This document shows positions 11,717 to 56,348 of a stretch of 64,000 nt of DNA, piece by piece. Position numbers and translations under genes: made by a program. This stretch comes from Candidatus Cloacimonadota bacterium. Its GTDB lineage: Bacteria; Cloacimonadota; Cloacimonadia; G963667145. The notes below the pieces were generated by a model. It was not told the DNA's origin. It saw only the letters and a list, made by a program, of their open reading frames with translations, and made no database searches. Each line of letters starts with the position of its first letter. The first letter of the stretch is position 1. Where the stretch lies: positions 337,459 through 401,458 of the forward strand of contig OY762943.1 in the NCBI GenBank assembly GCA_963667145.1, written 5' to 3'.

Positions 11717-13198
11717 TTAACGGAAAATACTGCCACCGATAAACTCGCGTAAAACTGAAGTTGACGGGATAAAAGTATCGTCAATTTCTTTCACATGTTC
11801 CAATATTGACAGTAACTTACAAGCCTTTTGGTAATTTGCAGAAGATTTTTCGACCTCAAGCAATGGATTAACAGCATGAGGCTTTAGAGCTGCCAGTTCG
11901 TAGGTTAAAGCTGAATTGAAAATGAAATCCGCTTCTTCCTGAAACGGAAAAATATTTTTGTCCTCACCTTCTCTGATGGCTTCCCAACGTCCAAGCGTGT
12001 CTTCGGCAGAATATCCCCGATAGTATTTATCCCTAACTATCCGTCTTAATTGCCTTATTTCTGTGGTGGTTATGCGATTGTGCCTGTCGAGGTTCAGCTG
12101 AAACAGCGGACTGATGTAGATGCTTTTCTTGTGCGAAAATGGGATGGAATAGGTGAGTTCCCTGTTCAGAGCGTGAATGCCCTCGATAATCAAAATGTGT
12201 TTTGAACCGATTTTGATAGTTTGTCCGCTTTTTTCTCTTTCCCCAGATTTGAAATTGTATTTAGGAAGCTCAACCTCATCGCCTTTCAGAATTTTGTTCA
12301 AATCTTTGTTCAGGTAGTGCAAATCTATCGATTCCAAACACTCAAAATCGAATTCACCATTGGGCTTGCGTGGAGTGAGTGTGCGAGGCAAAAAATAGTC
12401 GTCCAAGCTAATTACCACTGGCTTCAATCCAAAAACCGACAAATGCAGTCGCAGTTTGGAAGCGAAAGTCGTTTTTCCTGAAGAGGAAGGACCTGCAATG
12501 AGAATTAACTTCGCCAATTTATCACACTGGATAGCGGAAGCAATCTTGCTGATTTCCTGCTCAACTCGCGTTTCGTCCATCAAAATCTGATTTTTGATAG
12601 AACCATTGTCAACAGCTTGGTTCAGATAAGCCAAGTTGTACATCTTGGTCAAAAGAAGCCATCTCTTGTAGGATTGATGAGAATTAAACAACCGCTTGGA
12701 AATATTGAAGTTAGGATTGAATTCGCCAGATTCCCACGATGCCATTCGCAAAATGAATCCCGGACTATAATCGGAAAGTTTGAACTCACCCACTTTTCCA
12801 GTGCTTTCCAACAGTTCCCCCACGATGTAGTCACAATAGTCTCCACAGCAATAGATACTAATATTTTTAAATTTCAAAAACTCAATATTTTTTAACACAT
12901 CTTTTCTTTCGCTAAAAATCTCTTTTGCTTCTTCTGCGGACACAGTTTTCTTTATAATCGGTAAATCGTTATCGATTATTTCCTGCATTTTCGCCTGAAT
13001 TTCTCCAACCATGCTCCGCGACACGTAATTACGCCTAAAGTCCTCTATATACAAGCCGTCTTTCACGGAATTTTCTACCACCAATCGCCTCTTATTGTTC
13101 GTCAAAGAATAATATGCCATAAACAAAACAAAGCTAAGTGTCTTTTTGTTTAAATCAAACGCCTTTAATTTTTCCATATTACTTCCTCCTTCTTTCAA
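11717..13198 (-). CDS. uridine kinase family protein (PRK/Udk P-loop kinase domain with N-terminal extension)
   Basis: Walker A GPSSSGKTT followed by ISLDDYF, typical of uridine/cytidine kinases, plus an extra N-terminal domain of about 220 aa. The alternative start M8 would remove the overlap with murG. Confidence 0.6.
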   Translation of the reverse strand: MKEGGSNMEKLKAFDLNKKTLSFVLFMAYYSLTNNKRRLVVENSVKDGLYIEDFRRNYVSRSMVGEIQAKMQEIIDNDLPIIKKTVSAEEAKEIFSERKDVLKNIEFLKFKNISIYCCGDYCDYIVGELLESTGKVGEFKLSDYSPGFILRMASWESGEFNPNFNISKRLFNSHQSYKRWLLLTKMYNLAYLNQAVDNGSIKNQILMDETRVEQEISKIASAIQCDKLAKLILIAGPSSSGKTTFASKLRLHLSVFGLKPVVISLDDYFLPRTLTPRKPNGEFDFECLESIDLHYLNKDLNKILKGDEVELPKYNFKSGEREKSGQTIKIGSKHILIIEGIHALNRELTYSIPFSHKKSIYISPLFQLNLDRHNRITTTEIRQLRRIVRDKYYRGYSAEDTLGRWEAIREGEDKNIFPFQEEADFIFNSALTYELAALKPHAVNPLLEVEKSSANYQKACKLLSILEHVKEIDDTFIPSTSVLREFIGGSIFR

Positions 13199-42500: not shown

Positions 42501-42877
42501 ACACCAGATTTATTAGAATAAAAGCGGTCTAAAACCACTATCCTCTGCTCCAACACACCCAAAGAAGACGATCTACCTTCGTATGGCAGAAAATCAAAAT
42601 CTGGCAAAAACTGAGCAAAATTGTTTTGAATGAGATTAATATCGGAAACAATCTCCTGAATTTTGGGAATATTTGAACTGACAAAAAGAATTTTTTTCTT
42701 TTTAGTCACACTCAAAAAATACAGCCTCAGAGCTATATCCAACGCACAGTTTGTCCCGAAAATTGTTCTCTCGGGCAACAACAAAAACTCTTTTATCAGA
42801 GACGATTGGGCAATTTTACTAAGAATTGTTTTCATAATTTTCTCTTTACACAAACTATGAAAAATCCCTGATGTCAA
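39563..42877 (-). CDS. mfd: transcription-repair coupling factor
   Basis: 1104 aa with UvrB-like N-terminus, CarD/TRCF domain, DEAD/DEAH helicase motifs (GDVGYGKTEVA, DEEH) and a C-terminal TRCF domain. Confidence 0.9.
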   Translation of the reverse strand: MTSGIFHSLCKEKIMKTILSKIAQSSLIKEFLLLPERTIFGTNCALDIALRLYFLSVTKKKKILFVSSNIPKIQEIVSDINLIQNNFAQFLPDFDFLPYEGRSSSLGVLEQRIVVLDRFYSNKSGVYCLSPSSALRNLPKKQKLSSLCAKVGEEISQEALSEKLIGLGYGKSYQVYDGGEFAIRGEIFDICIPGEQLGVRIEYEYDTISKIRYFDLQTQLTTAELKQIKILPAREFTLFEATPKSEKIGEKVKEFGYYQGIENDLAEIFPVEAMVEKRNVLVFLDDLNLLSAQGELAEEADVAMHEVDRPLVASQDIFIKERKLNTILKSVYTFSNIYDSEKEFLPSDMQVGMNFQGNMELLQVEIKKFFDAGNSIVLQADNKAQIKRIKKILKDDYEISYDLGVFSTGFILDDVKLSVFTDHQIFNRYISKQNSFKGNPTIKKAETLQQGEYLVHSDYGIGIYGGLQTNVVDGKTIECLVLYYQGGDAIYLPSYSLDKVSKFVAAEGIEVKQDKIGSKRWQNTKRKVKEQIKVVAKDLVDFYAKRSQEKGISFLPDNELQESMENEFLYEPTRDQFEAISQIKEDMESEKPMERLLCGDVGYGKTEVAVRAAFKAVSSSYQVAVLSPTTLLCEQLFTVFSQRLAMYPVRIKMLSRFVKKSEQKRTVAELAEGTVDIVIGTHRLLSSDIDFARLGLLVIDEEHRFGVRAKEKLRKLKSNIDTLYMSATPIPRTLNMALSGVKDISLILSGPKYRLPVKTVVSYYQKNLLKHVIQKEVNRGGQIFFVHNRVESIGEELEKLQKLLPNVSMKIAHGQMKETELEEIILDFYHNKFSVLVCTSIIENGIDIANANTMIVNRADLFGLSSLYQLRGRVGRSTQRAYCYYLLPKHSDLHQYKRLQSLSEQGSNGYKVAMLDMQIRGVGSMVGTGQSGNIAQIGFNYYNNLLHDAIINMGEKEHFRVKKIDVNLEGEFYIPADYISDAELRLEIYSRMLNFTSKADFDNLVLELEDRFGAIGINALSTIAYYTVSVLAKKVGIKKIEYAKKRFLLTFAVVPEQSKLRDLMSSKYQVEFDLSQNFQLKVIIGDKQDLAKMVEIVTLIDESN

Positions 42878-42893
42878 TAAATTTTAAGGAATT

Positions 42894-43757
42894 ATGCGAA
42901 AAACAATTATATTTTTATTTTTATGTTTTTGGGAAAATTGGGCTTTCCCCTCTGCCTTTGATTATCTTGAGGAAATCACTGAATTCGGTCCTCGTGTACC
43001 AAACTCTTATGCCAGCGAACAAACTCGACAATACATAATCGAAAAGTTGAGTCCCTTGCCAAATATCGAAATCAGGATAGACACCTTTTTCACTTTTTTG
43101 AGAGGCAAAGCTCAAATCGGAATAAATATCATCGCAAGGTCAAATCCAGAAATTGAAGACAGAATGTTACTCTGCACGCATTACGACACTAGATTTTCTG
43201 CTGACGACGATGCCGAAACAGCTCACTTGCCTGTCCCTGGAGCAAACGATGGAGCCAGTGGCGTTGCCGCTTTGCTCACTATCGCCGAAGGAAACGCCAA
43301 CTATCACACCAAGCTCGGTTTGGACTTCGCCTTTTTCGATTTGGAAGACCAAGGAGAAGACGGTTCGTCCGAATATTGGGCTTTGGGTGCTAAAAATTTT
43401 TGCAACAAAATATCGCCAACTACCTATAAATTGGTCATCTTACTGGATATGATTGCGGGCAAAAATCAAGAATTTCCTCAAGAAAATTTCACCAAATCTT
43501 CTTTCCCAGAACTGAACAACGCCTTTTGGGAAATGGGGAAACTGAGCAGAAAAAAAGGCTCGTGGATATACGATGACCATATGCCTTTCGTTGCGATGGG
43601 AGTCCCGACAATCGCCGTGATAGGCTGGCCGTATCCGCAACATCACACCATCTATGACACCCCAAAATATTGCCGACCAAACACCCTGAACAAAATAATC
43701 AACACAACGTACAGATTTTTGAGATACTACAGCGAAAATCAGTACAAACTCAAATAA
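42894..43757 (+). CDS. M28 family zinc peptidase (glutaminyl-cyclase-like)
   Basis: Signal peptide plus M28 metal-ligand regions (HYDT..., NDGASGVAALL, FFDLEDQGEDGS). Confidence 0.65.
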   Translation: MRKTIIFLFLCFWENWAFPSAFDYLEEITEFGPRVPNSYASEQTRQYIIEKLSPLPNIEIRIDTFFTFLRGKAQIGINIIARSNPEIEDRMLLCTHYDTRFSADDDAETAHLPVPGANDGASGVAALLTIAEGNANYHTKLGLDFAFFDLEDQGEDGSSEYWALGAKNFCNKISPTTYKLVILLDMIAGKNQEFPQENFTKSSFPELNNAFWEMGKLSRKKGSWIYDDHMPFVAMGVPTIAVIGWPYPQHHTIYDTPKYCRPNTLNKIINTTYRFLRYYSENQYKLK

Positions 43758-45601
43758 ATTTCTTCTTTCTCTTCCAAACTTTTTTCAAATTTCTCGAAAA
43801 TCTGCTTCTGCTTCTCAATCTTGCTGTGAATCTCTTCCAATAAATCTTTATTCTGATAAATTTTTTTATCAGAAAGCAAAGCATAATTGATTTCGAGTTC
43901 ATCTTTGACTTCAGCCAACTTATTTTCAATCTCAACTATTTCTTGCTCCATCGCTTTCAATTTATGTGGATTCGTTCGCTGACTTTTCGGCTTTTCTACC
44001 TCTTTTTTCGCTTTCTTCCGCTTCTCATAGCTAAATTTTTCATAATCACAATCCAAGCTCTCTTTGATGCCATTTTCGGAGAAAATCCAAAACTTGGTTG
44101 CTAATTTTTCCACAAAGTATTTGTCATGACAAACAAAAAGTAAACTGCCTTTGTACACAGCCAAAGCGTTCTCCAGAGCCAAAATCATCTTCAAGTCCAA
44201 ATGATTGGTAGGCTCGTCCAAAACAAGGAAGTTGGGATTTTGCAAAATCAATCTGGCAAGATGTAGTCGTGATTTCTCTCCTCCACTCAAGGTAGAAATC
44301 TTGCGTTCAACATCGTCGCCCGTGAACTCATAAGCCGCCAAATATGACAAAGGTTTGCCAATCGGCTCGCCCGACATCAATTCCCAAATGCTCTGCAAAA
44401 CTGTTTGTCCCGAGGGAAAATTATAATTATTTTGCTCAAAATACCCGATTTTTAAATTGCTTCCGTGTTTCACTTCTCCAGACAAAGCGGACAATTTCCC
44501 GCAAACAGTGGACAAAAAAGTCGATTTTCCACATCCATTTTTCCCAATTAAAGCAACTCTATCTCCGCAAGAAAGCAACAGATTGATGTCGCTAATAACA
44601 ACTTTATCCCCATAACCGACGGACAAGTTGCGACACTCGATAACTTTTTCGCCAGTCCGCATAGTGTCCTTAAACAAAAGACTGAAATCTCTTTCGTCTT
44701 GTGGCTTTTCCAGAATCTCCATCTTATTCAGAGCCTTTAATCGGGAAGCCGCTTGCTTGGTCTTTTGTCCCGCCATATTGCGAGCAATGAAGTCTTTAGT
44801 TTTAGCTATATCTTTCTGCTGGAGAGTGTACTGTTTCTTTTGCTGACGGCACAACACGGCAAACTCTTCCTGAAAATGATTGAAATTCCCATTATAAATC
44901 CGCAATCTCTGCTGATGTAGATGAAAAAGTTTCGTGGTAACTTTGTCCAAAAAGCTTCTGTTGTGGGAAATCACCAAATAAGGCTTTTTTAGGTTGATTA
45001 AATATTTTTCCAGCCACGAAATCATCACAAAGTCAAGATGGTTGGTGGGTTCATCTAATAGGAGCATATCGAAATCGGACAAAAGAACTTTAGCCAATTG
45101 CAAACGTGCGAGTTGACCACCGCTCAAGCTACCCAGAGGCAAATCCCAACTGTCTTCATCAAAATTCAAGTGAACGAGGACAGATTTGATTTTGGAATCT
45201 AAAGTAAATCCACCCAACTCCTCGAATTTGTCTTGCAAATCAGCCAATTGATGAATATCTTCATAACTCTTTTCCACAGTCATTTTCTGCGTAAGATGAT
45301 GAATTTCCCGCTCCAAATCGTGCAGCTCTTTGCCAACTCCAGCTACAAAATCCCAAACAGAAATATCGTAACTACCCAAAAAATGTTGTTCCAGAAAAGC
45401 GATTTTCAGATTGGACTTTTTGCTGACTTTCCCTTTCAGCAGAGTTTTGCCATCCAAAAGAGCAGAAAAAAAAGAAGATTTGCCACAACCATTGTCGCCG
45501 ATTACGCCGATTTTATCGGCATCCTGTATCATAAACGACGCATCGGTCAAAAGCTCTTTATCGGAATAGCCAACACATAAATTGCTGGCAGATAAAATCA
45601 T
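43739..45601 (-). CDS. ABC-F family ATPase (tandem ABC domains, C-terminal coiled-coil)
   Basis: Two Walker A motifs (GDNGCGKSS, GKNGCGKST) and two LSGG signatures. The start is taken as M110 of the listed ORF (MILSASNLCVGY...) at 45601..45599, which forms an ATGA overlap with the upstream ricT stop. Confidence 0.8.
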   Translation of the reverse strand: MILSASNLCVGYSDKELLTDASFMIQDADKIGVIGDNGCGKSSFFSALLDGKTLLKGKVSKKSNLKIAFLEQHFLGSYDISVWDFVAGVGKELHDLEREIHHLTQKMTVEKSYEDIHQLADLQDKFEELGGFTLDSKIKSVLVHLNFDEDSWDLPLGSLSGGQLARLQLAKVLLSDFDMLLLDEPTNHLDFVMISWLEKYLINLKKPYLVISHNRSFLDKVTTKLFHLHQQRLRIYNGNFNHFQEEFAVLCRQQKKQYTLQQKDIAKTKDFIARNMAGQKTKQAASRLKALNKMEILEKPQDERDFSLLFKDTMRTGEKVIECRNLSVGYGDKVVISDINLLLSCGDRVALIGKNGCGKSTFLSTVCGKLSALSGEVKHGSNLKIGYFEQNNYNFPSGQTVLQSIWELMSGEPIGKPLSYLAAYEFTGDDVERKISTLSGGEKSRLHLARLILQNPNFLVLDEPTNHLDLKMILALENALAVYKGSLLFVCHDKYFVEKLATKFWIFSENGIKESLDCDYEKFSYEKRKKAKKEVEKPKSQRTNPHKLKAMEQEIVEIENKLAEVKDELEINYALLSDKKIYQNKDLLEEIHSKIEKQKQIFEKFEKSLEEKEEIYLSLY

Positions 45602-46389
45602 TCCTCTATTTTTCCCACAATATTTTTGACAGTCTCCAAAGGCAATTCCAAAGGCTCTTGACCATCTTTTACACCTATCAGATGCACCTTTTCCTTGGAA
45701 ATATCGTTGAAGGTAATAAAATAGTTTTCGCCCTTGTATCTGACTTTGGAGCCAATTTTCGGATACGACTGATAAATATCTTTTTCGTAATCCAAACAGC
45801 ACAAAAGACGTCCGCAAGGACCAGAAATTTGAGATAAATTCCCAGAGAGATTTTGTTGCTTCACCATTTTCACGGAAATTGGTTGAAATTTTTGCAGATG
45901 CCCATGGCAACAATAAGATCTGCCACACGAGCCAATTCCGCCCATATTTTTCGTCCTATCTCGCGAAGATATTTGGATAAACTCGATTCGCTTACCAAAA
46001 ATCGTAGCCAACTCCTTGGCAAATTCCCTGAAATCGACCCTTCCGTCCGAAGTGAACAAAAACAGCATCTTCTTGCCATCGAACTGCTGAACTCCGTAAA
46101 ATAGGTTCATCTCGATAGAATGATGAGTTATTGTCTTGTTGTATATCTCTTCGGCTTTTTTCTCCTCGTCCTTGAGAGCGTGCAACTTCGCCAAATCTTT
46201 TTCATCAGCAACCCGCAAAATCTTTTTGTACTCTTCTTCCACCGAAAATTCTTCGCCCACAGAAACCACTGTTGCAATGTCGTAGCCATATTCCAAATTG
46301 ACAATGACCCGTTGCAGAGGCGAAATAGCAAACTCTGGTGAATGATAAAACTGTTGCCGACCTGTTCTAAATGTTATTTTAACAGCCAT
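45598..46389 (-). CDS. ricT: PSP1 C-terminal domain protein (RicT/YaaT-like)
   Basis: 263 aa with a conserved PSP1-type core and clustered cysteines (SCGRSYCCHGH..CGRLLCC), as in Bacillus YaaT/RicT. Confidence 0.6.
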   Translation of the reverse strand: MAVKITFRTGRQQFYHSPEFAISPLQRVIVNLEYGYDIATVVSVGEEFSVEEEYKKILRVADEKDLAKLHALKDEEKKAEEIYNKTITHHSIEMNLFYGVQQFDGKKMLFLFTSDGRVDFREFAKELATIFGKRIEFIQISSRDRTKNMGGIGSCGRSYCCHGHLQKFQPISVKMVKQQNLSGNLSQISGPCGRLLCCLDYEKDIYQSYPKIGSKVRYKGENYFITFNDISKEKVHLIGVKDGQEPLELPLETVKNIVGKIEE

Positions 46390-47566
46390 AAAATTTTAAC
46401 TCTTTCTTATAAATTTTTTCTAATCTTTTCTTTTCCAAAGAAGCAATTTTTTCGCCTCTTCTCCCTTTTACAATCTTCAGGGTCTCCAAAAATTTCTCAA
46501 ACTCGTATAGAGAAACGCTGTCAGCAGTGCCAAATCTGAAGTTGCCTATTTTACCCTGAATTAGTTCCGTGCCAAATATACAACACGCTGTGCCAATATA
46601 AGCCCCAGTGTTTATCATAGACCCTATACCCAACTTGGTGTAATCTCCGACTACGCAACCCAAAAACTGCCTTTCGGTGTTGATTTTCTCTTCGCCATAA
46701 GAATACGATTTAACTTGAGAATAGTTGTTTTTCAGGTCGGAGCATGTCGTTCCAGCACCCAAATTTACCCAAGAACCAATGTAACTCTCTCCGATAAAGC
46801 CATAATGTTGCTTATTAGAAAAATCGTCAATGATTGCTCCGTCAACCTCGCCACCGATTTTGCAATAGTTGCCGATAGTTGCTCCGTTCTTCAAGTGAGC
46901 AAACGGATTTATCACAGAATTTTCGCCAATATAACACGGCCCCTGCACCACAGCTTGACTACCAATTTTAGCACCATCATCGATGATAATCGCTCCATTA
47001 CGAGCATCTATCACAGCTCCAGGGTCTATCTCCACATCTTTCCCCAGCCATACGCTGTACGGATTGAGCATCGTTACAAAATGACCTGGGATACTGAAGC
47101 TATCTGCACCATCGAAAAATAGCTTGAAATCGTCGTTAATCTGCTGTCCATTGTCAGCTACCAAATCCCACCAATGCTCACATAGAGCGTCCTCACAATA
47201 TTCAACATTGCTACATTTTTCAAGATTTTTGTAAGTGAATTTGCTCGAAACTTTAGTCTTAATAGCAACAATTCTTTCTTTCTGCTTTTCCAATAAAAGG
47301 CAATCAACTTTCAAATCTTTAATTTTCACAACCAAATCAGAATTTAATTTAACACTGGAATTTACCAACAAATATTCCCCAGCCAATAATTCCAAGTCGT
47401 TTAAATTTTGGGTATTTTCAAACTCCGCAAACTCTTCAAAATATTTGCATATTCTTTGACCCTGCGTGAAGCAACCTCGTCGCAAAGAAGAAACACTTCG
47501 CGAAGAACTAAATGGTGCAAGGTATCGATTGTCTGAATCGTCAAAAATAACAAGTTTAAGATTCAT
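46379..47566 (-). CDS. left-handed beta-helix (hexapeptide-repeat) protein, putative GlmU-like sugar nucleotidyltransferase family
   Basis: C-terminal [LIV]-G-x-x-x-x hexapeptide repeats (IGSQAVVQGPCYIGENSVINPFAHLKNGATIGNYCKIG...) and a degenerate NTP-transferase-like N-terminus. Confidence 0.55.
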   Translation of the reverse strand: MNLKLVIFDDSDNRYLAPFSSSRSVSSLRRGCFTQGQRICKYFEEFAEFENTQNLNDLELLAGEYLLVNSSVKLNSDLVVKIKDLKVDCLLLEKQKERIVAIKTKVSSKFTYKNLEKCSNVEYCEDALCEHWWDLVADNGQQINDDFKLFFDGADSFSIPGHFVTMLNPYSVWLGKDVEIDPGAVIDARNGAIIIDDGAKIGSQAVVQGPCYIGENSVINPFAHLKNGATIGNYCKIGGEVDGAIIDDFSNKQHYGFIGESYIGSWVNLGAGTTCSDLKNNYSQVKSYSYGEEKINTERQFLGCVVGDYTKLGIGSMINTGAYIGTACCIFGTELIQGKIGNFRFGTADSVSLYEFEKFLETLKIVKGRRGEKIASLEKKRLEKIYKKELKFYGC

Positions 47567-47843
47567 AAATCAAAACTTTTTTGTTCCTCTTTCGCCAAGC
47601 CTCGTGCAATTGCAAAATTTCCATCTGAAACAAAGTTTTTTTGTCCTCATCCCGAAAAGTGAGAATGTCCATCCAGTGCATCCGATTGTCTTTCCCCTTG
47701 AAAGATTTTTGAGGAAATTCCACCTGCAAACGACCGTCCTTCCGCAAGATAGAAACCTCGTTTATATACACACCTTCGCATATCTCGATGATGGCACGCG
47801 AGTCCACCACACCTTTGGAGACATCTTTAAAAATTACTTTCAT
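47556..47843 (-). CDS. spoVG: SpoVG family protein
   Basis: Core about 95 aa from M16 of the listed ORF (MKVIFKDVSKGVV...) matches SpoVG. Choosing this start gives an ATGA overlap with the nif3 stop. Confidence 0.6.
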   Translation of the reverse strand: MKVIFKDVSKGVVDSRAIIEICEGVYINEVSILRKDGRLQVEFPQKSFKGKDNRMHWMDILTFRDEDKKTLFQMEILQLHEAWRKRNKKVLIYES

Positions 47844-48574
47844 ATTACCTCTAATCGCTGTATTTTGTGTCTTTTCGGCACAAAACACTCAATGTTCATT
47901 TTATTTAATTGCGTTTGCAAAATCTCAATAGCAACACTCTCACTCCAATAGTGACCAACATCCAAAATGGAAACCTTGCTGTCTATGATTTGATGATATT
48001 TAAAATCCGCAGAAACCAGAATATCAGCTTTGTTCTCCAAGAGAGGCAACAAATGGCTACCGTTACCGCCACACACAGCAACTGTTCGCACCTTTTCCCG
48101 CAACGAATAAAGTTCCACGAATGGAGCTTGCAATCTCTTTTTCACAAATTCTGCAAAGTCAACAGTTGCCATCTCGGAAATTTCCCCCATTAACCCAAAC
48201 TCTTCTGTCTGGCTAATGTGGCTCAAGTTCGTAAGTTTCAACGCTTTTGCCAATCTGTAATTTACTCCCTCTTCGGCTATATCCAGATTTGTGTGAGCAC
48301 AAATTACATTGATTTTGTTCTCGATAATTCGCAAGTAGAGTTCGTTGCAAATAAATTTCAAGGGAGAAATAAATAGTGGATGATGAGAAACTATCAGCTC
48401 CGCTCCGAATTCAAGAGCCAACTCAACCGCCGACTCGTCTATGTCCAAACAAACCACAGCCTTGGAAATATTTCTATCGGTGCGTCCCACCAAAAGACCC
48501 ACATTGTCCCAGTCGGACGCCGATTCCCACGGAGCAAATTTATCCAAATTCGTCAAAATTTCGTTGATTTTCAT
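47840..48574 (-). CDS. Nif3-like dinuclear metal centre protein (YqfO/GTP cyclohydrolase 1 type 2 family)
   Basis: N-terminal W(E/D)NVGLLVG motif and His/Glu metal ligands. 244 aa. Confidence 0.8.
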   Translation of the reverse strand: MKINEILTNLDKFAPWESASDWDNVGLLVGRTDRNISKAVVCLDIDESAVELALEFGAELIVSHHPLFISPLKFICNELYLRIIENKINVICAHTNLDIAEEGVNYRLAKALKLTNLSHISQTEEFGLMGEISEMATVDFAEFVKKRLQAPFVELYSLREKVRTVAVCGGNGSHLLPLLENKADILVSADFKYHQIIDSKVSILDVGHYWSESVAIEILQTQLNKMNIECFVPKRHKIQRLEVI

Positions 48575-48740
48575 ACGCTCACAAAGAAATGAATAACGCT
48601 GTTATTAGTCAATAAATTATCCGTGGTAAATTTATTTGGAATTTGTCTTTATGATGGCTTTTTGAATTCACTCAATCATTATTCAACTATATTTTCGCTA
48701 GCGTAAAACAATTGATAGTTCCCTATCCCAACCAATTATA

Positions 48741-48900
48741 GATTCCCGCGTTTCAAGCACAATAGTACTAAGCAACAGATTAACGTTGTGCTTGATAGAC
48801 TGCGGGAATGAGGGTGCTTTGGACTTCCTGCTCTCATACTCACGCAAGTGGGTGTCCATCTTCTTGCTTCTCTATTCCTCATGCTTGCGAAAACGGTTAT
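48741..48900. repeat. repeat module A1/B1: nested palindrome (TCCCGCG...CGCGGGAATGAGG) followed by a B unit of about 80 nt
   Basis: GATTCCCGCG-(inner IR CAAGCACAA..TTGTGCTTG)-TGCGGGAATGAGG, then GTGCTTTGGACTTCCTGCTCTCATACTCACGCAAGTGGGTGTCCATCT. Copies A2/B2, A3/B3 and A4 occur elsewhere in the flanks. Confidence 0.7.
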
Positions 48901-48911
48901 CCATTTTTGAT

Positions 48912-49215
48912 GTTCATTTTTTTGCCGGAAAAAAACGAACCAAAAAACCTCCTTTTGTCATAAAATCGCTAAAACAGGGTCGTGAGATGCAGTGGTGCTG
49001 ACTCTGAGTAGAGACACCTCCGAGTAAACGACTATCCTCTGCTTCTCATAAATCACTTTTGCAATTCTCTAATGATGCTATGTTGTTAGCTAAATTATGC
49101 CAAAAGTCAAGCCCAGCTCAACCCAAAGAGTGCTTCACTCGGGGTGGGGTGGCTACAAATCCTTCAAGTCGAGCCTCGTGAAAATAGAAAACGACTGAAG
49201 TTAATTATTGTGCGA
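48912..49215. repeat. repeat module X1+Y1 (about 300 nt), direct repeat of 54494..54965
   Basis: TCATTTTTTTGCCGGAAAAAAACGAACCAAAAAACCTCCTTTTGTCATAAAATCGCTAAAACAG...GTGCTTCACTCGGGGTGGGGTGGC|TACAAATCC...GAAAATAGAAAACGACTGAAGT is shared with the right flank, identity about 75-95% per segment. Confidence 0.75.
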
Positions 49216-49326
49216 TACCTGTCGTCTCTTGCAGAATTTCTAATCTGACTTCACAGGTTGAGCTTACAATAATGCGAAGGAGTTGAATATTTTAGAGGTG
49301 AGACTTTGGATTTTGAATTTACCTTT

Positions 49327-49361
49327 GGTTCTTTCGCTTTGGTCACACAAAGGGAAAGAAC
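49327..49361. repeat. conserved hairpin module Z1 (GGTTCTTTCGCTTTG-GTCACAC-AAAGGGAAAGAAC)
   Basis: Imperfect stem of about 13 bp. An identical copy lies at 54650..54684, with the same 5' context GAATTTACCTTT. Confidence 0.7.
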
Positions 49362-49368
49362 ATAAAAT

Positions 49369-49500
49369 GGATTCCCGTTTTCACGGGAATGAGGGAAAAA
49401 AGCGAAAATGAGGATGATTGGGCTTCCTGCCCTCATACTCACGTAAGTGGGTATCTATCTCCCTGTTTCTCTACGCCTCATACTCACTGTCTATCAAGCA
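49369..49500. repeat. repeat module A2/B2
   Basis: GGATTCCCGTTTTCACGGGAATGAGG followed by GGCTTCCTGCCCTCATACTCACGTAAGTGGGTATCTATCTCC, about 80% identical to B1. Confidence 0.7.
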
Positions 49501-49777
49501 CAACTCTTTAACTTCTCCATCTTGCTTTTGTGCTTGGGGTGGATAAACTCTGAACACCAAAGAGGAGCAGTCTTAAATATCCATCTATGAAATGCAAAGC
49601 CAACTTATTGCAATAGCTAAACTTGAAGAGTACACGGGAGCATGCTGTACTTGATTCTCTGCTGGCGACTCGCAACGACTGCTACTATGTGGGCAGAGCG
49701 GTTTTTTCTTTCCCTCCTCTTTCTTTTTGAGCGGTCAAAAAGTAAAGAGGAGACTCTCTGTAAGAGAACATCCCAGC

Positions 49778-49870
49778 CACTGCCCTTGCTGGATTCCCGC
49801 GTCCGCGGGAATGAGGAGGGAAGGAGCGGGAATGGGGCGTGCTTTGGGGCTTCCTGCCCTCTTACCTCAT
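49778..49870. repeat. repeat module A3/B3 (GC-rich)
   Basis: GGATTCCCGCGTCCGCGGGAATGAGG, a second partial GAGCGGGAATGGGG, then GTGCTTTGGGGCTTCCTGCCCTC. Followed at 49880..49930 by an imperfect long palindrome CTGCGGAG..GTGTCC/GGACAC..CTCCGCAG. Confidence 0.65.
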
Positions 49871-49947
49871 GCCTGCGGAGGCGGTGTCCAGTTGGGTGAC
49901 AGATGGGGACACTCCGCAGCTCCTCACTCTCGTGCAGGCGACTGCAC

Positions 49948-49980
49948 AAAAAAATGGCACACCTTCAATAAAAGTGTGCC
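49948..49980 (-). terminator. intrinsic terminator of the lectin/LRR gene
   Basis: Minus-strand reading: GGCACAC-TTTTATTGAA-GGTGTGCC followed by ATTTTTTT, about 25 nt after the stop codon. Confidence 0.7.
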
Positions 49981-50002
49981 TTAAAAACAAGTATTATATA
50001 AT

Positions 50003-53000
50003 TTAATTAGTATTATAAATTCTACAACTTGGAAAAATTGCTTTAATACGAGCAACTTCTTCTGAGCTTATTTGATTATTATAACAATATAACCAAGTCA
50101 AATTAGTACATTTTTCTAATCCTACTAAGCTGGTGAGTTTATTATAAGAACAAGATAAAGTATTCAAATTAGTACATTTTTCTAATCCTACTAAGCTGGT
50201 GAGTTGATTATTATAACAATATAAAGTATTCAAATTAGTACATTTTTCTAATCCTACTAAGCTGGTGAGTTGATTATTATAACAATATAAAGTATTCAAA
50301 TTAGTACAATTTTCTAATCCTGTTAGGCTGGTAAGTTGATTAGCATTACAATCTAACACCCTTAATTTAGTACAATTCTCTAATTTTTCTAAACTTGTAA
50401 GCCGGTTATCTGAGCACTGTAAAAAATCTAGTATAGTACAATTATCTAATCCTTTTAAATTTGTAAGCTGGTTAGAATAACAATATAAGAAGCGCAAAAA
50501 CGTACAATTTTCTATTCCTTCTAAACTCGTTATTTGGTTGTCATGGCATTTTAAAAACCGCAAATTAGTACAATTTTCTAATCCTGTTAGGCTGGTGAGT
50601 TGATTCCTATAACACTCTAACTTATTCAAATTAGTACAATTTTCTAAAGCTGTTAGGTTGGTGAGTTGATTACCATCACAATATAAACTATACAAATTAG
50701 TACAATTTTCTAATTCTGTTAGGCTAGTGAGTTGATTACTATAACAAGCTAAATAAGTCAAATTAGTACAATTTTCTAATCCTGTTAGGATAGTGAGTTG
50801 ATTATGAGAACAATCTAACTCAGACAATTTAGTACAATTTTCTATCCCTGTTAGGCTAGTGAGTTGATTATTATGACACCATAAAGTAGTCAAATTTGTT
50901 AAATTTTCTATCCCTGATAGACTGGTGAGTTGATTATTATTACCACAATGTAAATAAGTCAAATTTGTTAAATTTTCTATCCCTGATAGGCTGGTGAGTT
51001 GATTATTATGACACCATAAAGTAGTCAAATTTGTTAAATTTTCTAATCCTACTAAGCTGGTGAGTTTATTATTATAGCACCATATAGAAGTCAAATTTGT
51101 TAAATGTTTAAGTCCAGAAAGATTGCTTAAACTAAAGTCACCTAAAGAAATCTCTTTTCTATTGAAAATTTCTTTTATTTTTTCATCACTTGGCTTGTTA
51201 GTATTTTTTGACAACCATAATACTTTATATTTAAAAGCTCTTTTCCATTGGTCTTCCAAGCTATCCCACCAATTACTTCTTCTTTGCACACCTAAGTCTC
51301 CATCCACCAAATGCCACTCTGCTCCGTGAAAGTTAGTATTGGTATCGATATCTTTTTCACTATTCCACTCACAAATAAAAGGTAGTTTTCCATTTCCACC
51401 GTCGTTCCAAGTGCCATCAGAATAGAAAAAGGCATAATCTTCGTCTCCACCATAGTTATTTGGTTCGCCCTTGCTCCAGTTGGCATAGTAGCGGTCTTCT
51501 CCGCTTGCCCATTTCCAAGTACCTTCTGTCTCAGTATCACTGGCTCCCATCCAGCATAGAGGACTGCCATTAGGAACTAAGACATCTTTATAAATAGTAT
51601 TTTGTTCTTCTTGAGAGCTTACGCTTACCAAATATCCACCAATTTTTTCGCAATAGGCTTTAGCTTCTTCCCAAGTCATTTCTGTTGAAAAATATTTATA
51701 AATATGTTTTGTTGGCTCTTTTATATCATCTTTACTATTCCATTCGCAAATAAAGGGCAATATTCCCATGCCTCCGTCATTCCAAGAACCGTTGGAATAT
51801 AATAACATAAAGTTTTCGCCATCGCCACTATTGTTTGGCTCACCAAAATTCCAATTACTATACTTCCATTTCTCTCCACTTACCCATTGCCAATCATCTT
51901 CTTTTTTGTAGTCGTTTGCTCCACCCCAACATTCAGGGCTACCATTGGAAACCATTACATTTTGATAGATATATTCTTGTTCCACCTGAGAAGTTATACT
52001 TGCCAAATATCCGCCTCTGCTTTCGCAATAGCTTTTGGCAGCTGCCCATGTCATCGGCTCTGAGATATATTTATACACATGCCCTTCAGGATTAAGCTTT
52101 ACCTCTGCCTGACTATTCCACTCACAGATAAAAGGCAAATTCTTTTCGGCTACATCATTCCAAGAACCATCGGGATAAAAAGATACATAGTTTTCAATTC
52201 CTGCACTATTACTCGGCTCACCCCTGCTCCAATTGCTGTAATAGCAATCTTCTCCACTTGTCCATTTCCAATTGTTTTCTTTCTCTTCGTCAGATGCTCC
52301 AAGCCAGCACTCTGGAGTACCGTTAGGAATAAGGTAGTTATTATAGATTTTATATTGCTCTTCACTGCTATTTACACTTACCAAATATCCGCCTATTCTT
52401 TCGCAATAAGCCTTAGCTTCAGCCCAAGTCATTTTTTCTGAAATATATTTGTAAACATGGTCAGTGTATTCTTTAATATCATCTTTACTATTCCATTCAC
52501 AAACGAAAGGTAAAAGCCCATAAGCTCCGTCGCTCCAAGTATTGCCCGAGTTAAAAAACATAAAATCTTGATTATTGCTATTGTCAGGCTCACCTTTCAT
52601 CCATTTTTCATATTCCCATTTTTCTCCGCTTACCCATTGCCAATGATTTTCATTTTTGTAATCACTTGCTCCGCCCCAACACAGAGGAGATCCATTGGGA
52701 ACTAAATAATTTTCAAAGATATATTCTTGTTCTATTTGAGTAGTTACACTAACCAAATATCCGCCTCTGCTTTCGCAATAAGTTTTGGCGGCTGCCCAAG
52801 TCATGGCTTTCGGGATATATTCATATACATGTCCGGTTGGATTGAGAATGTCTTCTTTACTATTCCACTCACAAATAAATGGCAGTCTTCCCTTGCCTCC
52901 GTCGTTCCAAGAACCGTCAGAATAGAAAAAAGCATAATCTTCGTCTCCGCCATAGTTATTAGGTTCGTTTTTGCTCCAATTGGAGTAGTAAAAACCTTCG

Positions 53001-54109
53001 CCGTTTGCCCATTTCCAATCTCCTTCCTTTTCTCCGTCACTTGCACCCATCCAGCAATTTGGATTGCCATTAGGTGCTAAAACATTGGTATAGACAAGAT
53101 TTTGTTCTTCTTGAGAAGTCACACTTACCAAATATCCACCTACGCTTTCACAATAGGCTTTAGCTTCTTCCCAAGTCATTTTTGTTGGAATATATTTGTA
53201 AATATGCTCTGTTGCTTCTTTAATATCTGCTTCTTTGTTCCACTCGCAAACAAATGGCAAAAGTCCATATCCTCCATCGCTCCAAGTATTGCCCGAGTTA
53301 AAAAACATAAAATCTTGACCACCGCTATTATCAGGTTCACCCGGATACCACTTAGTATAATCCCACTTTTCTCCACTTACCCATTCCCATTTGTCTTCTT
53401 TTTTGTAGTCGCTTGCTCCACCCCAACTTAGAGGGGTGCCGTTGGGAGCCAAATAATTGTGATATATATATTCTTGCTCTGTTTGAGAAGTCACACAAGC
53501 CAAATATCCGCCCATTCTTTCGCAATATGTTTTGGCGGCTGCCCAAGTCATGGCTTTGGAAATATATTTATAAACATGTTTTGCAGATTCTTTTATGTCA
53601 GCTTCGCTATTCCATTCGCATATAAAGTAAAACCTTCCCGCATTGCCATCGCCATCAAACCATTTGCCATTGGGAAGTGTAGCCAAATGGTCTTCATCGC
53701 CTGTACCTCCGCCATTGTTAGGTTCACCATCTGCCCAGTTAGTATAAGAGTCCAACTTTGTTCCATCTAACCATTCCCAAATAGCATCATTGTTGGTGTT
53801 AATTCCACCTATCCAACATGCAGGGCTACCACCTGGAACAATTACACTGTCATAAATATAATTTTGTTCTTCTTGGGAGTTTATACAAGCTAAATATCCA
53901 CCCATGCTTTCACAATAAGCTTTAGCTTCCTCCCATGATAGTGGCAGTTTTACCAGCTTATATACATGGGGATTCTGTGCAGTGGTTGATAATTGTACAT
54001 CATTCGATGTAGCGTCAGGTTTTGCGTGTTCTGTGGTTGGCAATGAGCAGGCATAGAAAATAATTACTGCAACTAACACGACTAATACGTTGAATAACTG
54101 TTTTTTCAT
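50003..54109 (-). CDS. giant secreted/lipoprotein-like protein with 7 tandem C-type lectin (CTLD/CRD) domains and about 19 C-terminal leucine-rich repeats
   Basis: Signal peptide MKKQLFNVLVVLVAVIIFYAC. Seven repeats of about 125 aa with the canonical CTLD pattern W.EAK.YCE..GGYL....S..EQ.YI...CW.G..D......W.W..GE...Y.NW..GEP(N/D/S)N......F......WND.....LPFICEW. Then 22-aa LRRs (NQLTSLxGLENCTNLxxLxCxx). SD AAGGAGG lies 8 nt upstream of the ATG. Confidence 0.85.
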   Translation of the reverse strand: MKKQLFNVLVVLVAVIIFYACSLPTTEHAKPDATSNDVQLSTTAQNPHVYKLVKLPLSWEEAKAYCESMGGYLACINSQEEQNYIYDSVIVPGGSPACWIGGINTNNDAIWEWLDGTKLDSYTNWADGEPNNGGGTGDEDHLATLPNGKWFDGDGNAGRFYFICEWNSEADIKESAKHVYKYISKAMTWAAAKTYCERMGGYLACVTSQTEQEYIYHNYLAPNGTPLSWGGASDYKKEDKWEWVSGEKWDYTKWYPGEPDNSGGQDFMFFNSGNTWSDGGYGLLPFVCEWNKEADIKEATEHIYKYIPTKMTWEEAKAYCESVGGYLVSVTSQEEQNLVYTNVLAPNGNPNCWMGASDGEKEGDWKWANGEGFYYSNWSKNEPNNYGGDEDYAFFYSDGSWNDGGKGRLPFICEWNSKEDILNPTGHVYEYIPKAMTWAAAKTYCESRGGYLVSVTTQIEQEYIFENYLVPNGSPLCWGGASDYKNENHWQWVSGEKWEYEKWMKGEPDNSNNQDFMFFNSGNTWSDGAYGLLPFVCEWNSKDDIKEYTDHVYKYISEKMTWAEAKAYCERIGGYLVSVNSSEEQYKIYNNYLIPNGTPECWLGASDEEKENNWKWTSGEDCYYSNWSRGEPSNSAGIENYVSFYPDGSWNDVAEKNLPFICEWNSQAEVKLNPEGHVYKYISEPMTWAAAKSYCESRGGYLASITSQVEQEYIYQNVMVSNGSPECWGGANDYKKEDDWQWVSGEKWKYSNWNFGEPNNSGDGENFMLLYSNGSWNDGGMGILPFICEWNSKDDIKEPTKHIYKYFSTEMTWEEAKAYCEKIGGYLVSVSSQEEQNTIYKDVLVPNGSPLCWMGASDTETEGTWKWASGEDRYYANWSKGEPNNYGGDEDYAFFYSDGTWNDGGNGKLPFICEWNSEKDIDTNTNFHGAEWHLVDGDLGVQRRSNWWDSLEDQWKRAFKYKVLWLSKNTNKPSDEKIKEIFNRKEISLGDFSLSNLSGLKHLTNLTSIWCYNNKLTSLVGLENLTNLTTLWCHNNQLTSLSGIENLTNLTYLHCGNNNQLTSLSGIENLTNLTTLWCHNNQLTSLTGIENCTKLSELDCSHNQLTILTGLENCTNLTYLACYSNQLTSLTELENCTNLYSLYCDGNQLTNLTALENCTNLNKLECYRNQLTSLTGLENCTNLRFLKCHDNQITSLEGIENCTFLRFLYCYSNQLTNLKGLDNCTILDFLQCSDNRLTSLEKLENCTKLRVLDCNANQLTSLTGLENCTNLNTLYCYNNQLTSLVGLEKCTNLNTLYCYNNQLTSLVGLEKCTNLNTLSCSYNKLTSLVGLEKCTNLTWLYCYNNQISSEEVARIKAIFPSCRIYNTN
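50130..50393. repeat. near-identical 66-bp tandem repeats inside the LRR-coding region
   Basis: Units start at 50130, 50196, 50262 and 50328 (CTGGTGAGTTGATTATTATAACAATATAAAGTATTCAAATTAGTACATTTTTCTAATCCTACTAAG), with 0-4 mismatches between neighbours. Further, more diverged copies run to about 51100. Confidence 0.85.
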
Positions 54110-54224
54110 TTATTCTTCCTCCTTGTTTTTAATTTCTAAACACAAAAAAAAGACCGCCCAACCGCATTGAACTGTCTCTCAAACTACATAAATTTTGTTG
54201 ACCTGTTAAACCACAGGCATCTTT

Positions 54225-54260
54225 GACTGACTGACTGACTGACTGACTGACTGACTGACT
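54225..54260. repeat. (GACT)9 tetranucleotide microsatellite in the lectin gene upstream region
   Basis: Nine perfect GACT units (AGTC on the coding strand), 116-151 nt upstream of the start codon at 54109. TTGACA-like hexamers lie just distal to it on the coding strand. Confidence 0.95.
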
Positions 54261-54413
54261 ATTCTATTCATTTTCATAAGCCTTAAGAATATGAAGTCAA
54301 ACAGATGTCAAATACTTTTTATGCTTCTAAGCACAATGCCGTCTCTCTATATTCTCATCCTCGCGAAAGCGGGGAACCATTCTCCTTTTCGTGCTATCCT
54401 TACTAAACCAACT

Positions 54414-54440
54414 GGATGCCCGTTTACACGGGCATGAGGA
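54414..54440. repeat. repeat module A4 (GGATGCCCGTTTACACGGGCATGAGG)
   Basis: Same palindrome-plus-ATGAGG architecture as A1-A3, with compensatory changes in the stem (TCCCG/CGGGA becomes GCCCG/CGGGC). Confidence 0.65.
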
Positions 54441-54493
54441 TTAGAAAAACAGGAAGCACAAGCACTCCTCATTCTCGCGGAAGCAGGGATTTA

Positions 54494-54590
54494 CAAGCCC
54501 AAAAAGTGCTTCGCTTGGGGTGGCTACAAATCCATCAAGTTGAGCCTCGTAAAAATAGAAAACGACTGAAGTCAATTGTTGTGCGTCTGA
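54494..54590. repeat. repeat modules X'(3' end of X)+Y2
   Basis: CAAGCCCAAAAAGTGCTTCGCTTGGGGTGGC|TACAAATCCATCAAGTTGAGCCTCGTAAAAATAGAAAACGACTGAAGTCAATTGTTGTGCG matches 49110..49215. Confidence 0.75.
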
Positions 54591-54633
54591 CCACTAAAAT
54601 AAAGCTAATCTTTGAGACTATATTTTAGTGGTC
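54589..54633. repeat. perfect 13-bp inverted repeat hairpin
   Basis: GACCACTAAAATA-(19-nt loop)-TATTTTAGTGGTC. No adjacent U-tract on either strand. Confidence 0.8.
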
Positions 54634-54649
54634 AGATGAATTTACCTTT

Positions 54650-54684
54650 GGTTCTTTCGCTTTGGTCACACAAAGGGAAAGAAC
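54650..54684. repeat. hairpin module Z2 (identical to Z1)
   Basis: GGTTCTTTCGCTTTGGTCACACAAAGGGAAAGAAC, identical to 49327..49361. Confidence 0.75.
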
Positions 54685-54722
54685 ATAAAAGTGAATTACC
54701 TCTTTTGTGAGAAGGAGTTTAT

Positions 54723-54965
54723 GCTCATTTTTTTGCCGGGAAAAAACGAACCAAAAAACCTCCTTTTGTCATAAAATCGCTAAAACAGTGACGTGAGATG
54801 AAATAATGCTAACCATGAATAGAAACATCTCCGAGTAAATGACTATCACCTGCTTCCCACAATCCACTTTTACACTTTCTCAATTATGCCACTGCCGTTT
54901 TACTAAATTATGACAAAAGTCATGCCCAACCTTCCCAAAGTGTGCTTCGCTTAGGGTAGGGTGGC
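54723..54965. repeat. repeat module X2 (full-length copy of X1)
   Basis: TCATTTTTTTGCCGGGAAAAAACGAACCAAAAAACCTCCTTTTGTCATAAAATCGCTAAAACAG...AAAGTGTGCTTCGCTTAGGGTAGGGTGGC. Aligns end-to-end with 48912..49153. The first 70 nt are about 97% identical and the rest about 70%. Confidence 0.75.
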
Positions 54966-55175
54966 ATTCTTCCGACACAACAAAAGCATAAACATAAACC
55001 AATCTCCCAAAGACATGTAAAATCAGAAATAACAAATTATAAAGATAGTCGTACATCGGAAACGACCCACACTTACTTCTCACAGGTTTCGCGAAGCTGT
55101 TTATGCTATTTGTGGCGAAGAAAACCTTTCTCTTGGTTACTTCTATTTCGGTTACGAAAGAGAAGTGACACCTAA

Positions 55176-56348
55176 TCACATCAAATAAACTCTCTGCACC
55201 GAACCAATAGCCAATTTATCCTCATCTATTCTTATCTCCACCAAACCTTCAATTTCATTCAACGACAACAGATGACCAGAATTAACAAAATTACAGACCT
55301 CAACTTTTCCGTTAATTATTCTAACAGGTCTGTACTCTTGCCTGTCCAAGTCTTTCGTACGCACAAACTCCTTCCCCATGGGCAAATTCAAGACTGAAGG
55401 ATTCGAGGGCAAACCAAGAAGTCGTTTAATCAATTGGGAGACAAACAGATGAAAAACCACAAAACTGGAAACCTGATTGCCAGGCAAAGCAAAATAAGGT
55501 TTCCCACAGACTTCAGAAAAAAAAGTGGGTTTCCCCGGCTTAAACTTCATCTTTTGGAAAATGAATTTTGCCCCCAATTCCTGCAAAGCTCTGGGGATAT
55601 AATCGAAATCGCCCATGGAAGCACCACCCGAAGAAAGCACCAAATCACATTCGGAAACCGCTTGTTTGATGGCGTCGACAGTTGCAGGCAAATCATCACT
55701 AACCAACCTATATTCCACAGGAATAGCACCCAATTCTCGCACCTGAGCCGCCAACATCGGACTGTTGCTGTCAAATTTTTTGCCAATTGCCAAATCACCG
55801 AAATCTTCCACCAACTCATCACCAGTCACCAAAATCCCAACTCTTGGCTTCTTATAAACCTTTATCTCCCTCTTGCCCACAGAAGCCAAAATCCCGATAG
55901 TCTGAGAAGCAACTTTCTGACCAGCATGCAAAATTCTCTCGCCCTTGCTGACGTATTCGCCTTGATAGCAAATGTTGTTCCCCACAGCACCAGTGATTTT
56001 CAGCCGATTGCTTTCCACTTCAGCATCTTCCACAGGCACCACCATATCGAACTCTTTGGGAACTACCGCTCCAGTCATTATCTTGATGCATTCACCTTCG
56101 GAATACTTTCGTCCTAAGTCCTCTCCTGCTTTTTGCACAGCCACCACCTCAGGCAAAACATCACTGCTTCTGTAAGCGTAGCCATCTTTCAAAGCCTTGT
56201 CATAAGCAGGCTGATCGAACGGCGATGTTACATCTTCAGCCAAAGTTCTACCCAAACCCTCAGCCAGTGGAACAATCTCATGCGACAACGACGATAATTC
56301 GTACTCATCTATCAACTTGAAAGCCAAATCAGGTTCAATAAACTTCAT
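55176..56348 (-). CDS. moeA: molybdopterin molybdotransferase
   Basis: MoeA/gephyrin-E architecture, with the GGASMGDFDY and PGKP regions. Confidence 0.85.
   Translation of the reverse strand: MKFIEPDLAFKLIDEYELSSLSHEIVPLAEGLGRTLAEDVTSPFDQPAYDKALKDGYAYRSSDVLPEVVAVQKAGEDLGRKYSEGECIKIMTGAVVPKEFDMVVPVEDAEVESNRLKITGAVGNNICYQGEYVSKGERILHAGQKVASQTIGILASVGKREIKVYKKPRVGILVTGDELVEDFGDLAIGKKFDSNSPMLAAQVRELGAIPVEYRLVSDDLPATVDAIKQAVSECDLVLSSGGASMGDFDYIPRALQELGAKFIFQKMKFKPGKPTFFSEVCGKPYFALPGNQVSSFVVFHLFVSQLIKRLLGLPSNPSVLNLPMGKEFVRTKDLDRQEYRPVRIINGKVEVCNFVNSGHLLSLNEIEGLVEIRIDEDKLAIGSVQRVYLM

Follow-up and report, generated by a model that had tools for sequence, protein, structure and literature searches.

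Two related families of intergenic hairpin repeats have been described in Neisseria. NTS repeats and the wider group of Ssn-related motifs (SRMs) are hairpins cut by SsnA, a small GIY-YIG nuclease that cleaves single-stranded DNA on one strand only (PMC11893778, Nat Commun 2025). Both typically flank the ssn gene itself; in Neisseria, they cluster around surface and virulence genes and lower the integration of transforming DNA that bears them; and cleavage was shown by mutagenesis to depend most on the three bases upstream of the palindrome (PMC11893778). In the so-called NIMEs (neisserial intergenic mosaic elements), inverted repeats named dRS3 flank RS modules. NIMEs are associated with variable surface-protein genes and were stated in 2007 not to occur outside Neisseria (PMC1797815). 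A role as recombination substrate was proposed for NIMEs (PMC1797815) and shown in part for NTS and SsnA (PMC11893778). Knowledge of the Ssn/NTS system dates only from 2025. A comparable locus is presented here, found in a 64-kb stretch of the chromosome of a Candidatus Cloacimonadota bacterium (contig OY762943.1; the whole stretch is called the window). It is an island containing a lectin gene between the housekeeping genes nif3 and moeA. It probably represents the gene of an accessory surface lectin set within an array of NTS-like hairpins that resembles a NIME. The Neisseria-style picture of alternating units, repeat modules and an accessory surface-protein gene would thereby recur far from Neisseria, in an uncultured lineage whose genome measures about 1.5 Mb.

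The genes nif3 (47840–48574) and moeA (55176–56348), identified by their Pfam NIF3 and MoeA domains, are both on the minus strand. The interval between them consists of 1428 nt of non-coding DNA, the gene of the 1368-residue lectin, and a further 1066 nt of non-coding DNA. The two flanks (48575–50002 and 54110–55175) are the largest intergenic gaps of the window, in which the median gap is 4 nt. The closest homologues of MoeA are encoded by complete Candidatus Cloacimonadota chromosomes of about 1.55–1.59 Mb. In three of these sister chromosomes (L122, L124 and L125), the MoeA of which is 80, 61 and 61% identical to that of the window, moeA and nif3 are separated by 129, 62 and 70 nt, respectively, with the same neighbouring genes. 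Homology with the closest one, L122, stops on the left at window position 48633, a short way upstream of the promoter region of nif3; its right-hand limit is position 55176, the moeA stop codon. As nif3 and moeA are adjacent in the three sister chromosomes, the segment 48634–55175 is an insertion relative to them, which bears out the insertion-like island of the original prediction.

That prediction, made from the sequence of the window, also held that the flanks contain no credible open reading frame (ORF) and that no recombinase is present. Both statements stand: Pfam matched no ORF of the flanks and none of the island besides the lectin gene, and several flank ORFs are mere translations of hairpin units (LDSRVRGNEE, for example). 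The raised G+C content attributed to the two flanks was confirmed only in part. The left flank is weakly enriched (43.3%) and the right flank equals the window (39.2% for both); elevated values are confined to the hairpin units (about 51%) and to positions 49600–49999 (51.5%), the contrast being mostly with the A+T-rich lectin gene (36%). Neither tRNA nor tmRNA genes were found in the window.

Both flanks contain multiple copies of a short hairpin unit. Read on the strand that starts with CTCAT, the unit is composed of CCTCAT, a G+C-rich stem of 6–8 bp whose two arms are separated by a GNAA-like loop, and ATCCA, for a basic length of about 28 nt. In an alignment of 22 units from the window and the sister genomes (alignment A2), CTCAT never varies and the ATCCA tail hardly does. 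By sequence, the units are members of the dRS3/NTS family. Their hairpin core, TCATTCCCGCG...CGCGGGAATCC, is that of NTS, and it is likewise bordered by an oriented, non-palindromic head and tail. The 20-nt palindrome dRS3 (ATTCCC-N8-GGGAAT) is matched exactly at 49371–49390 and 49793–49812, with 0.18 matches expected; the remaining units have variant stems (GCCCG, ACTCAC and CCTCGC). The unit U7, CCTCATTCCCGCGGACGCGGGAATCCAG, differs from the 28-nt NTS consensus CGTCATTCCCGCGMAVGCGGGAATCYRG by two mismatches, namely C for G at position 2 and one loop base. Another type of stem, CTCATACTCAC...GTGGGTATC, is similar to NTSvar as published. As judged from the predicted folds and from covariation among the 22 units, these are inverted repeats of 20–50 nt that form hairpins with an oriented flank, as SRMs are.

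Four elements of this kind had been predicted, each beginning with a palindrome followed by ATGAGG. The pattern is real, with five matches for 0.09 expected by chance, and its number had been underestimated. There are at least 12 hairpin units, nine of them significant with a covariance model and three additional ones, of which two have long loops and one is decayed. The four predicted elements are the junctions formed by a reverse unit, a linker and a forward unit. They had been considered undocumented, which does not hold: with its palindrome, the unit falls among the variants of the dRS3/NTS hairpin of Neisseria and of the Ssn-related motifs (PMC11893778), and arrays of such units with intervening repeat modules are known as the NIMEs of Neisseria (PMC1797815).

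Short G+C-rich extragenic palindromes that alternate in orientation, form intergenic mosaics and are recognised as single-stranded hairpins are also known in Proteobacteria, as repetitive extragenic palindromic (REP) sequences arranged in bacterial interspersed mosaic elements (BIMEs) and associated with REP-associated tyrosine transposases (RAYTs, of the Y1 type). REP sequences have a GT[AG]G head. The units of the island could be of the REP type in a BIME-like arrangement, spread by a RAYT and serving primarily in RNA, as stabilisers or terminators; two of them were detected by a simple terminator scan, and the parallel with REP and BIME has been drawn before (PMC11893778). However, the sequence of the units fits dRS3/NTS and not GT[AG]G-headed REPs, and in other phyla this variant of the unit borders ssn genes, the associated enzyme there being a GIY-YIG nuclease. 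The lack of Pfam matches among the island ORFs extends to RAYT, no genome-wide search for which was made. An origin from REP and RAYT is highly improbable, because both the sequence family and the partner enzyme in other phyla point to Ssn.

The stem positions had been predicted to co-vary between copies, and this was verified with the 22 aligned units. Ninety-six per cent of the stem cells are paired, four of the eight stem pairs are changed on both sides, and the covariation score was reached in none of 500 shuffles. When the partner columns were slid, pairing fell to 24–48%. The hairpin structure is under selection. Wobble pairs are unequally distributed between the strands, with 12 T·G versus one G·T on the CTCAT strand, where 169 of 176 cells are paired versus 159 of 176 on the complement. 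This bias fits, to a modest degree, a hairpin formed by one strand in single-stranded DNA.

A covariance model built from these aligned units, which do not include U3, detected nine significant units in the window, U3 among them. All nine are inside the island; outside it, the highest score of the window is 11.5 bits. No significant unit was found in the other 57 kb of the window, nor in 63 kb of syntenic core DNA of the sister genomes. In the left flank, U1 (48744–48815) is a reverse unit with a long loop, in which an outer NTS-like stem encloses an inner hairpin (z = −4.2); the model matches it weakly at 48774–48815. U2 (48830–48860, plus strand; CTCAT-ACTCAC-GCAA-GTGGGT) is NTSvar-like, with a hairpin fold and a score of 35.3 bits (E = 7e-8). 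The partly decayed U3 (48875–48905, plus strand) reaches 31.1 bits (E = 1e-6). U4 (49366–49396, minus strand) contains one of the dRS3 matches, with zero mismatches, and scores 47.1 bits (fold z = −3.5). U5 (49429–49459; 39 bits) and the long-loop U6 (49474–49545) follow, and then U7 (49788–49818, minus strand; 42.1 bits), which contains the other exact dRS3 match. U8 (49863–49893, plus strand; 26.6 bits, E = 3e-5) is decayed. On the other side of the lectin gene, U9 (54351–54381, plus strand; 40.1 bits) is of the variant CTCAT-CCTCGC-GAAA-GCGGGG, which is also present in L014, L033 and L041. U10 (54411–54441, minus strand; 41.5 bits, fold z = −6.4) has the GCCCG/CGGGC stem, U11 lies at 54465–54495 (33 bits), and U12 (54691–54717) is decayed.

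The arrays of sister genomes contain a second hairpin unit, CGTTCCCAAGCTCCAGCTTGGGAATGC, which is absent from the window (L014, 2520–2549 and 2629–2658; L041, 5964–5998; L115, 693–724). It is 100% identical over 30–32 nt between genomes with MoeA proteins only about 60–80% identical. Its sequence resembles a motif of spurious ORFs in many phyla.

The twelve units alternate in orientation and are separated by shared repeat modules, as in a NIME. They delimit five successive slots of the form forward unit, cargo, reverse unit, with short conserved linkers in between. Three slots hold a non-coding cassette containing a Z hairpin, a module Y and a small hairpin x', with or without the body of a module X, and one slot holds the lectin gene. 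Read along the plus strand, the array starts with the cassette c0 ending in the reverse unit U1, followed by a linker, the forward units U2 and U3, X-Y-Z and the reverse unit U4. After another linker come the forward units U5 and U6, a 285-nt cargo with a Z-like hairpin, the reverse unit U7 and a linker. The lectin slot runs from the forward unit U8 through the terminator, the lectin gene, a (TGAC)9 repeat and U9 to the reverse unit U10. A last linker leads to the forward unit U11, x', Y, a hairpin, Z and the decayed reverse unit U12, followed by a second X and moeA. As with NTS, the units thus lie in clusters on both sides of a surface-protein gene, in an NTS-gene-NTS layout. The array shares with NIMEs the palindromes of the 20-nt class between families of repeat modules, and the G+C peaks at the palindromes. 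It differs from NIMEs by longer modules (up to about 460 nt) with conserved hairpins of their own, by the strict alternation of unit orientation, which gives cassette-like slots, and by the phylum of the host.

The sharing of X, Y and Z between the flanks and their shuffled order, both predicted, were confirmed. The two copies of X (48907–49153 and 54718–54965, both plus strand) are 82% identical over 250 nt, those of Y (49145–49214, plus strand, and 54516–54585) are 93% identical, and those of the Z hairpin (49314–49367, plus strand, and 54637–54690; fold z = −6.1) are identical at 54 of 54 nt. No copy of X, Y, Z or the units was found elsewhere in the window. The view of X, Y and Z as independent shuffled modules had to be replaced: they are parts of one family of cassettes bounded by inverted units.

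The cassettes are read on the minus strand. In c1 (48875–49396), the order is U4, Z, spacer, Y, x', X body and U3 (alignment A4); the left copy of X comprises the x' hairpin tail and the body of about 220 nt. The cassette c3 (54465–54717) consists of U12, Z, a hairpin at 54586–54636, Y, x' (54498–54521) and U11 (alignments A1 and A4). The hairpin, folded as 54584–54638, has a z of −8.7 and an 82% identical copy in L127. Relative to c3 and to the sister cassettes, the X body is an insertion (alignment A4), that is, an extra module in c1 that is repeated once, alone, beside c3. In c2 (49429–49818), U7 is followed by a small hairpin, the Z-like hairpin (49714–49752; z = −5.5), diverged cargo, and U6 and U5 (alignment A5). 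The homology with sister cassettes is best supported for c1 and c3 (alignments A4 and A5), c1 having BLAST matches for 49157–49357 in L033, L014, L065 and L041. For c2, BLAST matched 49702–49846 in L041 and L014, and alignment A5 supports the outer parts. The truncated and decayed c0 (48634–48815, plus strand) appears to be the remainder of a further cassette when read against the tail of a sister cassette (...cccaaccaatt and unit), a homology that is poorly supported, the c0 row of the MAFFT alignment A5 being unclear.

Over roughly its first 50 nt, X shows 100% identity from one copy to the other. On the minus strand, this start (48925–48960 and 54736–54771) contains AAAGGAGG followed by a nine-codon ORF initiated by TTG, MVRFFPAKK, which is preserved in the two copies, the T/C difference between them being synonymous. 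Its spacing from the Shine-Dalgarno sequence is short, and the ORF is probably due to chance.

The unit-bounded cassette is a dispersed family. In the sister chromosome OY781061.1, a cassette of about 320 nt occurs at at least six places in four loci, with copies 75–94% alike in which a forward unit is followed by a small hairpin, the Z hairpin, cargo and a reverse unit. Altogether, at least four sister genomes have units and cassettes at further loci, which answers affirmatively the original question of whether the modules have copies in relatives. A pattern search with the X core and Z in JGI metagenome contigs, where this lineage is not represented, and with Z in viral contigs gave zero matches each. 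Within the window, the confinement of the modules to the two flanks and the direct repetition of X, Y and Z to the left and right of the lectin gene would also be expected if insertion of this gene had been accompanied by a simple local duplication and the modules belonged to no wider family. The permuted module order and the uneven divergence of the copies (82, 93 and 100% identity) do not fit such an event, and the copies of cassettes and units dispersed in sister genomes, together with the presence of the unit in many phyla, contradict it. This explanation has next to no probability and was rejected.

The Z hairpin has homologues with compensatory substitutions in the sister cassettes, in which a C/C mismatch is conserved, and compensatory changes are also seen in the 54584–54638 hairpin and in x'. 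The cassettes could therefore be viewed as structured small RNAs or cis-regulatory RNA elements controlling the lectin gene. The complete identity of Z and of the start of X between copies, the strand-specific wobble pairs and promoter-like hexamers on the minus strand of X would agree with this. However, single-stranded DNA explains the constraints on the hairpins equally well, and the cassette copies of sister genomes adjoin unrelated genes. Rfam gave no match in the island, whether at the gathering or at the E-value threshold; in the whole window, the former returned an FMN riboswitch only and the latter only matches at chance level. Neither promoter-like sites (17 versus 19.4) nor terminator-like sites (6 versus 4.7) are more numerous than in shuffled sequences to any notable extent. 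A regulatory RNA function of the cassettes is very unlikely.

The pattern GGATKCCCG-N6-CGGGMATGAGG was searched in one genome per species. It was found at at least 119 loci across many phyla, for about four expected by chance according to calculation. The listed matches include Neisseria, Legionella, Dehalococcoidia, Planctomycetota, Actinomycetota and two Cloacimonadota chromosomes. At four of these at least 119 listed loci, forward and reverse units have an ssn-like GIY-YIG gene between them; the query for ssn was a consensus that was validated only by these four matches. CTCAT-headed units are present on both sides of the gene in L063, upstream in L114 and, as one copy further downstream, in L120, and the gene of L118 has a different palindrome on both sides. 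The CTCAT-headed variant of the island thus also occurs beside ssn genes of other phyla, and the published SRM search pattern misses this common variant.

Arrays of this kind also frame further accessory genes. Downstream of clpB, the clade has a variable hot spot (L033, 1809–4017; L126, 10542–13483; L127, 10539–16089). In L033, an ORF of 280 codons stands between two cassettes. In L126, a GmrSD-type restriction gene adjoins cassette cargo. In L127, a segment with an rve transposase gene and ORFs of 777 and 67 codons is framed by arms of 94 nt that are 88% complementary, with one unit within each arm. As with NIMEs, the arrays accompany variable or accessory genes, including those of surface proteins, and their content varies between related genomes at syntenic sites, as seen from the absence of the lectin gene in the sister genomes and from the clpB site. 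If this is confirmed genome-wide, such arrays would mark the accessory-gene hot spots of these genomes.

Inverted ends, a length of a few hundred nucleotides, multiple dispersed copies and a cargo with no coding capacity are features that the cassettes share with the miniature inverted-repeat transposable elements of bacteria (MITEs), such as the Correia elements. They may be non-autonomous elements of this kind, with the NTS-like ends serving as transposition signals, that accumulated in an intergenic site tolerant of them; the lectin gene would then have arrived separately, and the array would have no function for the host. The six or more copies in one sister genome and those in two others agree with this proposal, as does the rve transposase segment framed by the L127 arms. 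The cassette termini are also the same as in the unit-ssn-unit arrangement of other phyla, which has been likened to an insertion sequence (PMC11893778). On the other hand, the ends are complete hairpins and not plain terminal inverted repeats, neither a target-site duplication nor an empty site was seen, and no autonomous partner or transposase was found for them. Moreover, units alternate regularly, with conserved linkers, and accessory genes are framed repeatedly, at two independent sites, which looks more like organisation at the level of the array. A purely MITE-like origin is considered unlikely, and such a selfish family overlaps the interpretation as a NIME-like array around an accessory gene, from which it is inseparable here.

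For the NIME-like array, the following mechanism can be proposed. The units would function as hairpins of single-stranded DNA formed by the CTCAT strand. A hairpin-specific enzyme with its gene elsewhere in the genome, such as a GIY-YIG single-strand nuclease of the Ssn type, may recognise them and would spread and maintain the repeats; it is in this capacity that Ssn would play a part at the island. The arrays would be recombination substrates where accessory genes are gained, exchanged or lost, and c1 and c3, as direct repeats on either side of the lectin gene, could also allow its deletion.

Several observations weigh against this interpretation. With the published criterion for NTS of at most one mismatch (PMC11893778), no unit qualifies; the best match is 49789–49816 on the minus strand, within U7, and no other unit is within three mismatches of the consensus. 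The published SRM pattern, HGTCWYN(0-2)YYVSBRHN(0-5)WNVSBRGN(0-2)RNCYNB, has no match in the window. The units fail it because their position 2 is C, the head being CTC (CTCAT) instead of GTC (GTCAT); when position 2 was freed, three units matched, along with what is likely a chance match at 12726–12758. Since this change falls in the three-base region most important for cleavage, a Neisseria-type SsnA might not cut CTC-headed units. Neither an ssn gene nor a remnant of one was found in the window, in the cassettes or in about 180 kb of DNA of the clade; searching X-Y-Z and the sister cassettes for a decayed ssn gave nothing above 7 bits, for a positive control of 165 bits. Most of the wobble pairs come from one inherited stem variant (CCTCGC/GCGGGG), on which the strand asymmetry largely rests. 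Regarding mobility of the cassettes, no site was seen in both empty and filled states, and no duplicated target. Lastly, arrays of the sister genomes also adjoin the genes of H+-PPase, PanE, EamA and a giant surface protein. As housekeeping genes are among these neighbours, the arrays have no exclusive link with surface proteins.

The cassettes, of about 260–520 nt, are a departure from the NTS/SRM arrangement, where units are not known to bound a conserved cassette. A non-coding cassette that shares its ends with an ssn gene unit bears on the mobility of such elements. A bolder proposal, put forward tentatively and at present doubtful, is that the cassettes are both a gene-capture platform and a MITE-like derivative of a mobile unit-ssn-unit element. 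The platform would carry swappable accessory genes: the lectin gene here and, at the clpB site, the GmrSD gene, the transposase-bearing segment and the 280-codon ORF. If true, this would provide first evidence for the Ssn/SRM system as a present or former family of transposable elements that acts via single-stranded hairpins. It would also mean that Ssn/SRM organises accessory-gene hot spots well outside Neisseria, in a Cloacimonadota lineage with a reduced genome.

The lectin gene (50003–54109, minus strand) encodes an accessory surface protein of 1368 residues with a signal- or lipobox-like N-terminus, seven C-type lectin domains and a leucine-rich repeat (LRR) region (Pfam Lectin_C, 3e-97; LRR_4, 2e-65). 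An intrinsic terminator with an 11-bp stem followed by a T run is located downstream (49956–49980, minus strand). No orthologue was found in the sister genomes. One paralogue, P0122 (1114 residues), is encoded outside the window on the same chromosome of 1,539,614 bp. Its first 31 residues differ at one position from the signal- or lipobox-like N-terminus of the lectin gene product, the lectin half is 75% identical, and the C-terminus is an FGE-sulfatase-type domain instead of LRRs.

A perfect tetranucleotide repeat, (TGAC)9.2, was found with Tandem Repeats Finder at 54224–54260 (100% matches, score 74), that is, 115–151 nt upstream of the start codon of the lectin gene. Its position near the promoter of a surface-protein gene suggests on/off switching by slippage (phase variation). 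An A8/T8 run is present at about 54143–54150. The DNA of the LRR region (50072–51097) consists of 15.5 tandem copies of a 66-nt unit that are 78% alike, with a G+C content of 25–30%, and the copy number could vary.

The rest of the window is gene-dense core genome. In a scan of the whole window, the 25 listed of 78 matching Pfam families all have housekeeping roles, in the synthesis of the cell wall and of riboflavin, in translation and in protein export. The FMN riboswitch (581–692, 121.8 bits) is an ordinary one upstream of the riboflavin genes. Four Logan contigs, L001, L002, L123 and L129 (SRR34447523, SRR34447542, SRR34447527 and SRR34447544), which are short-read assemblies of one study, contain DNA that matches positions 42017–47855 of the window with 100% identity, and likewise DNA of a sister genome. 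These samples therefore harbour both the organism and its relatives and could serve for a population analysis.

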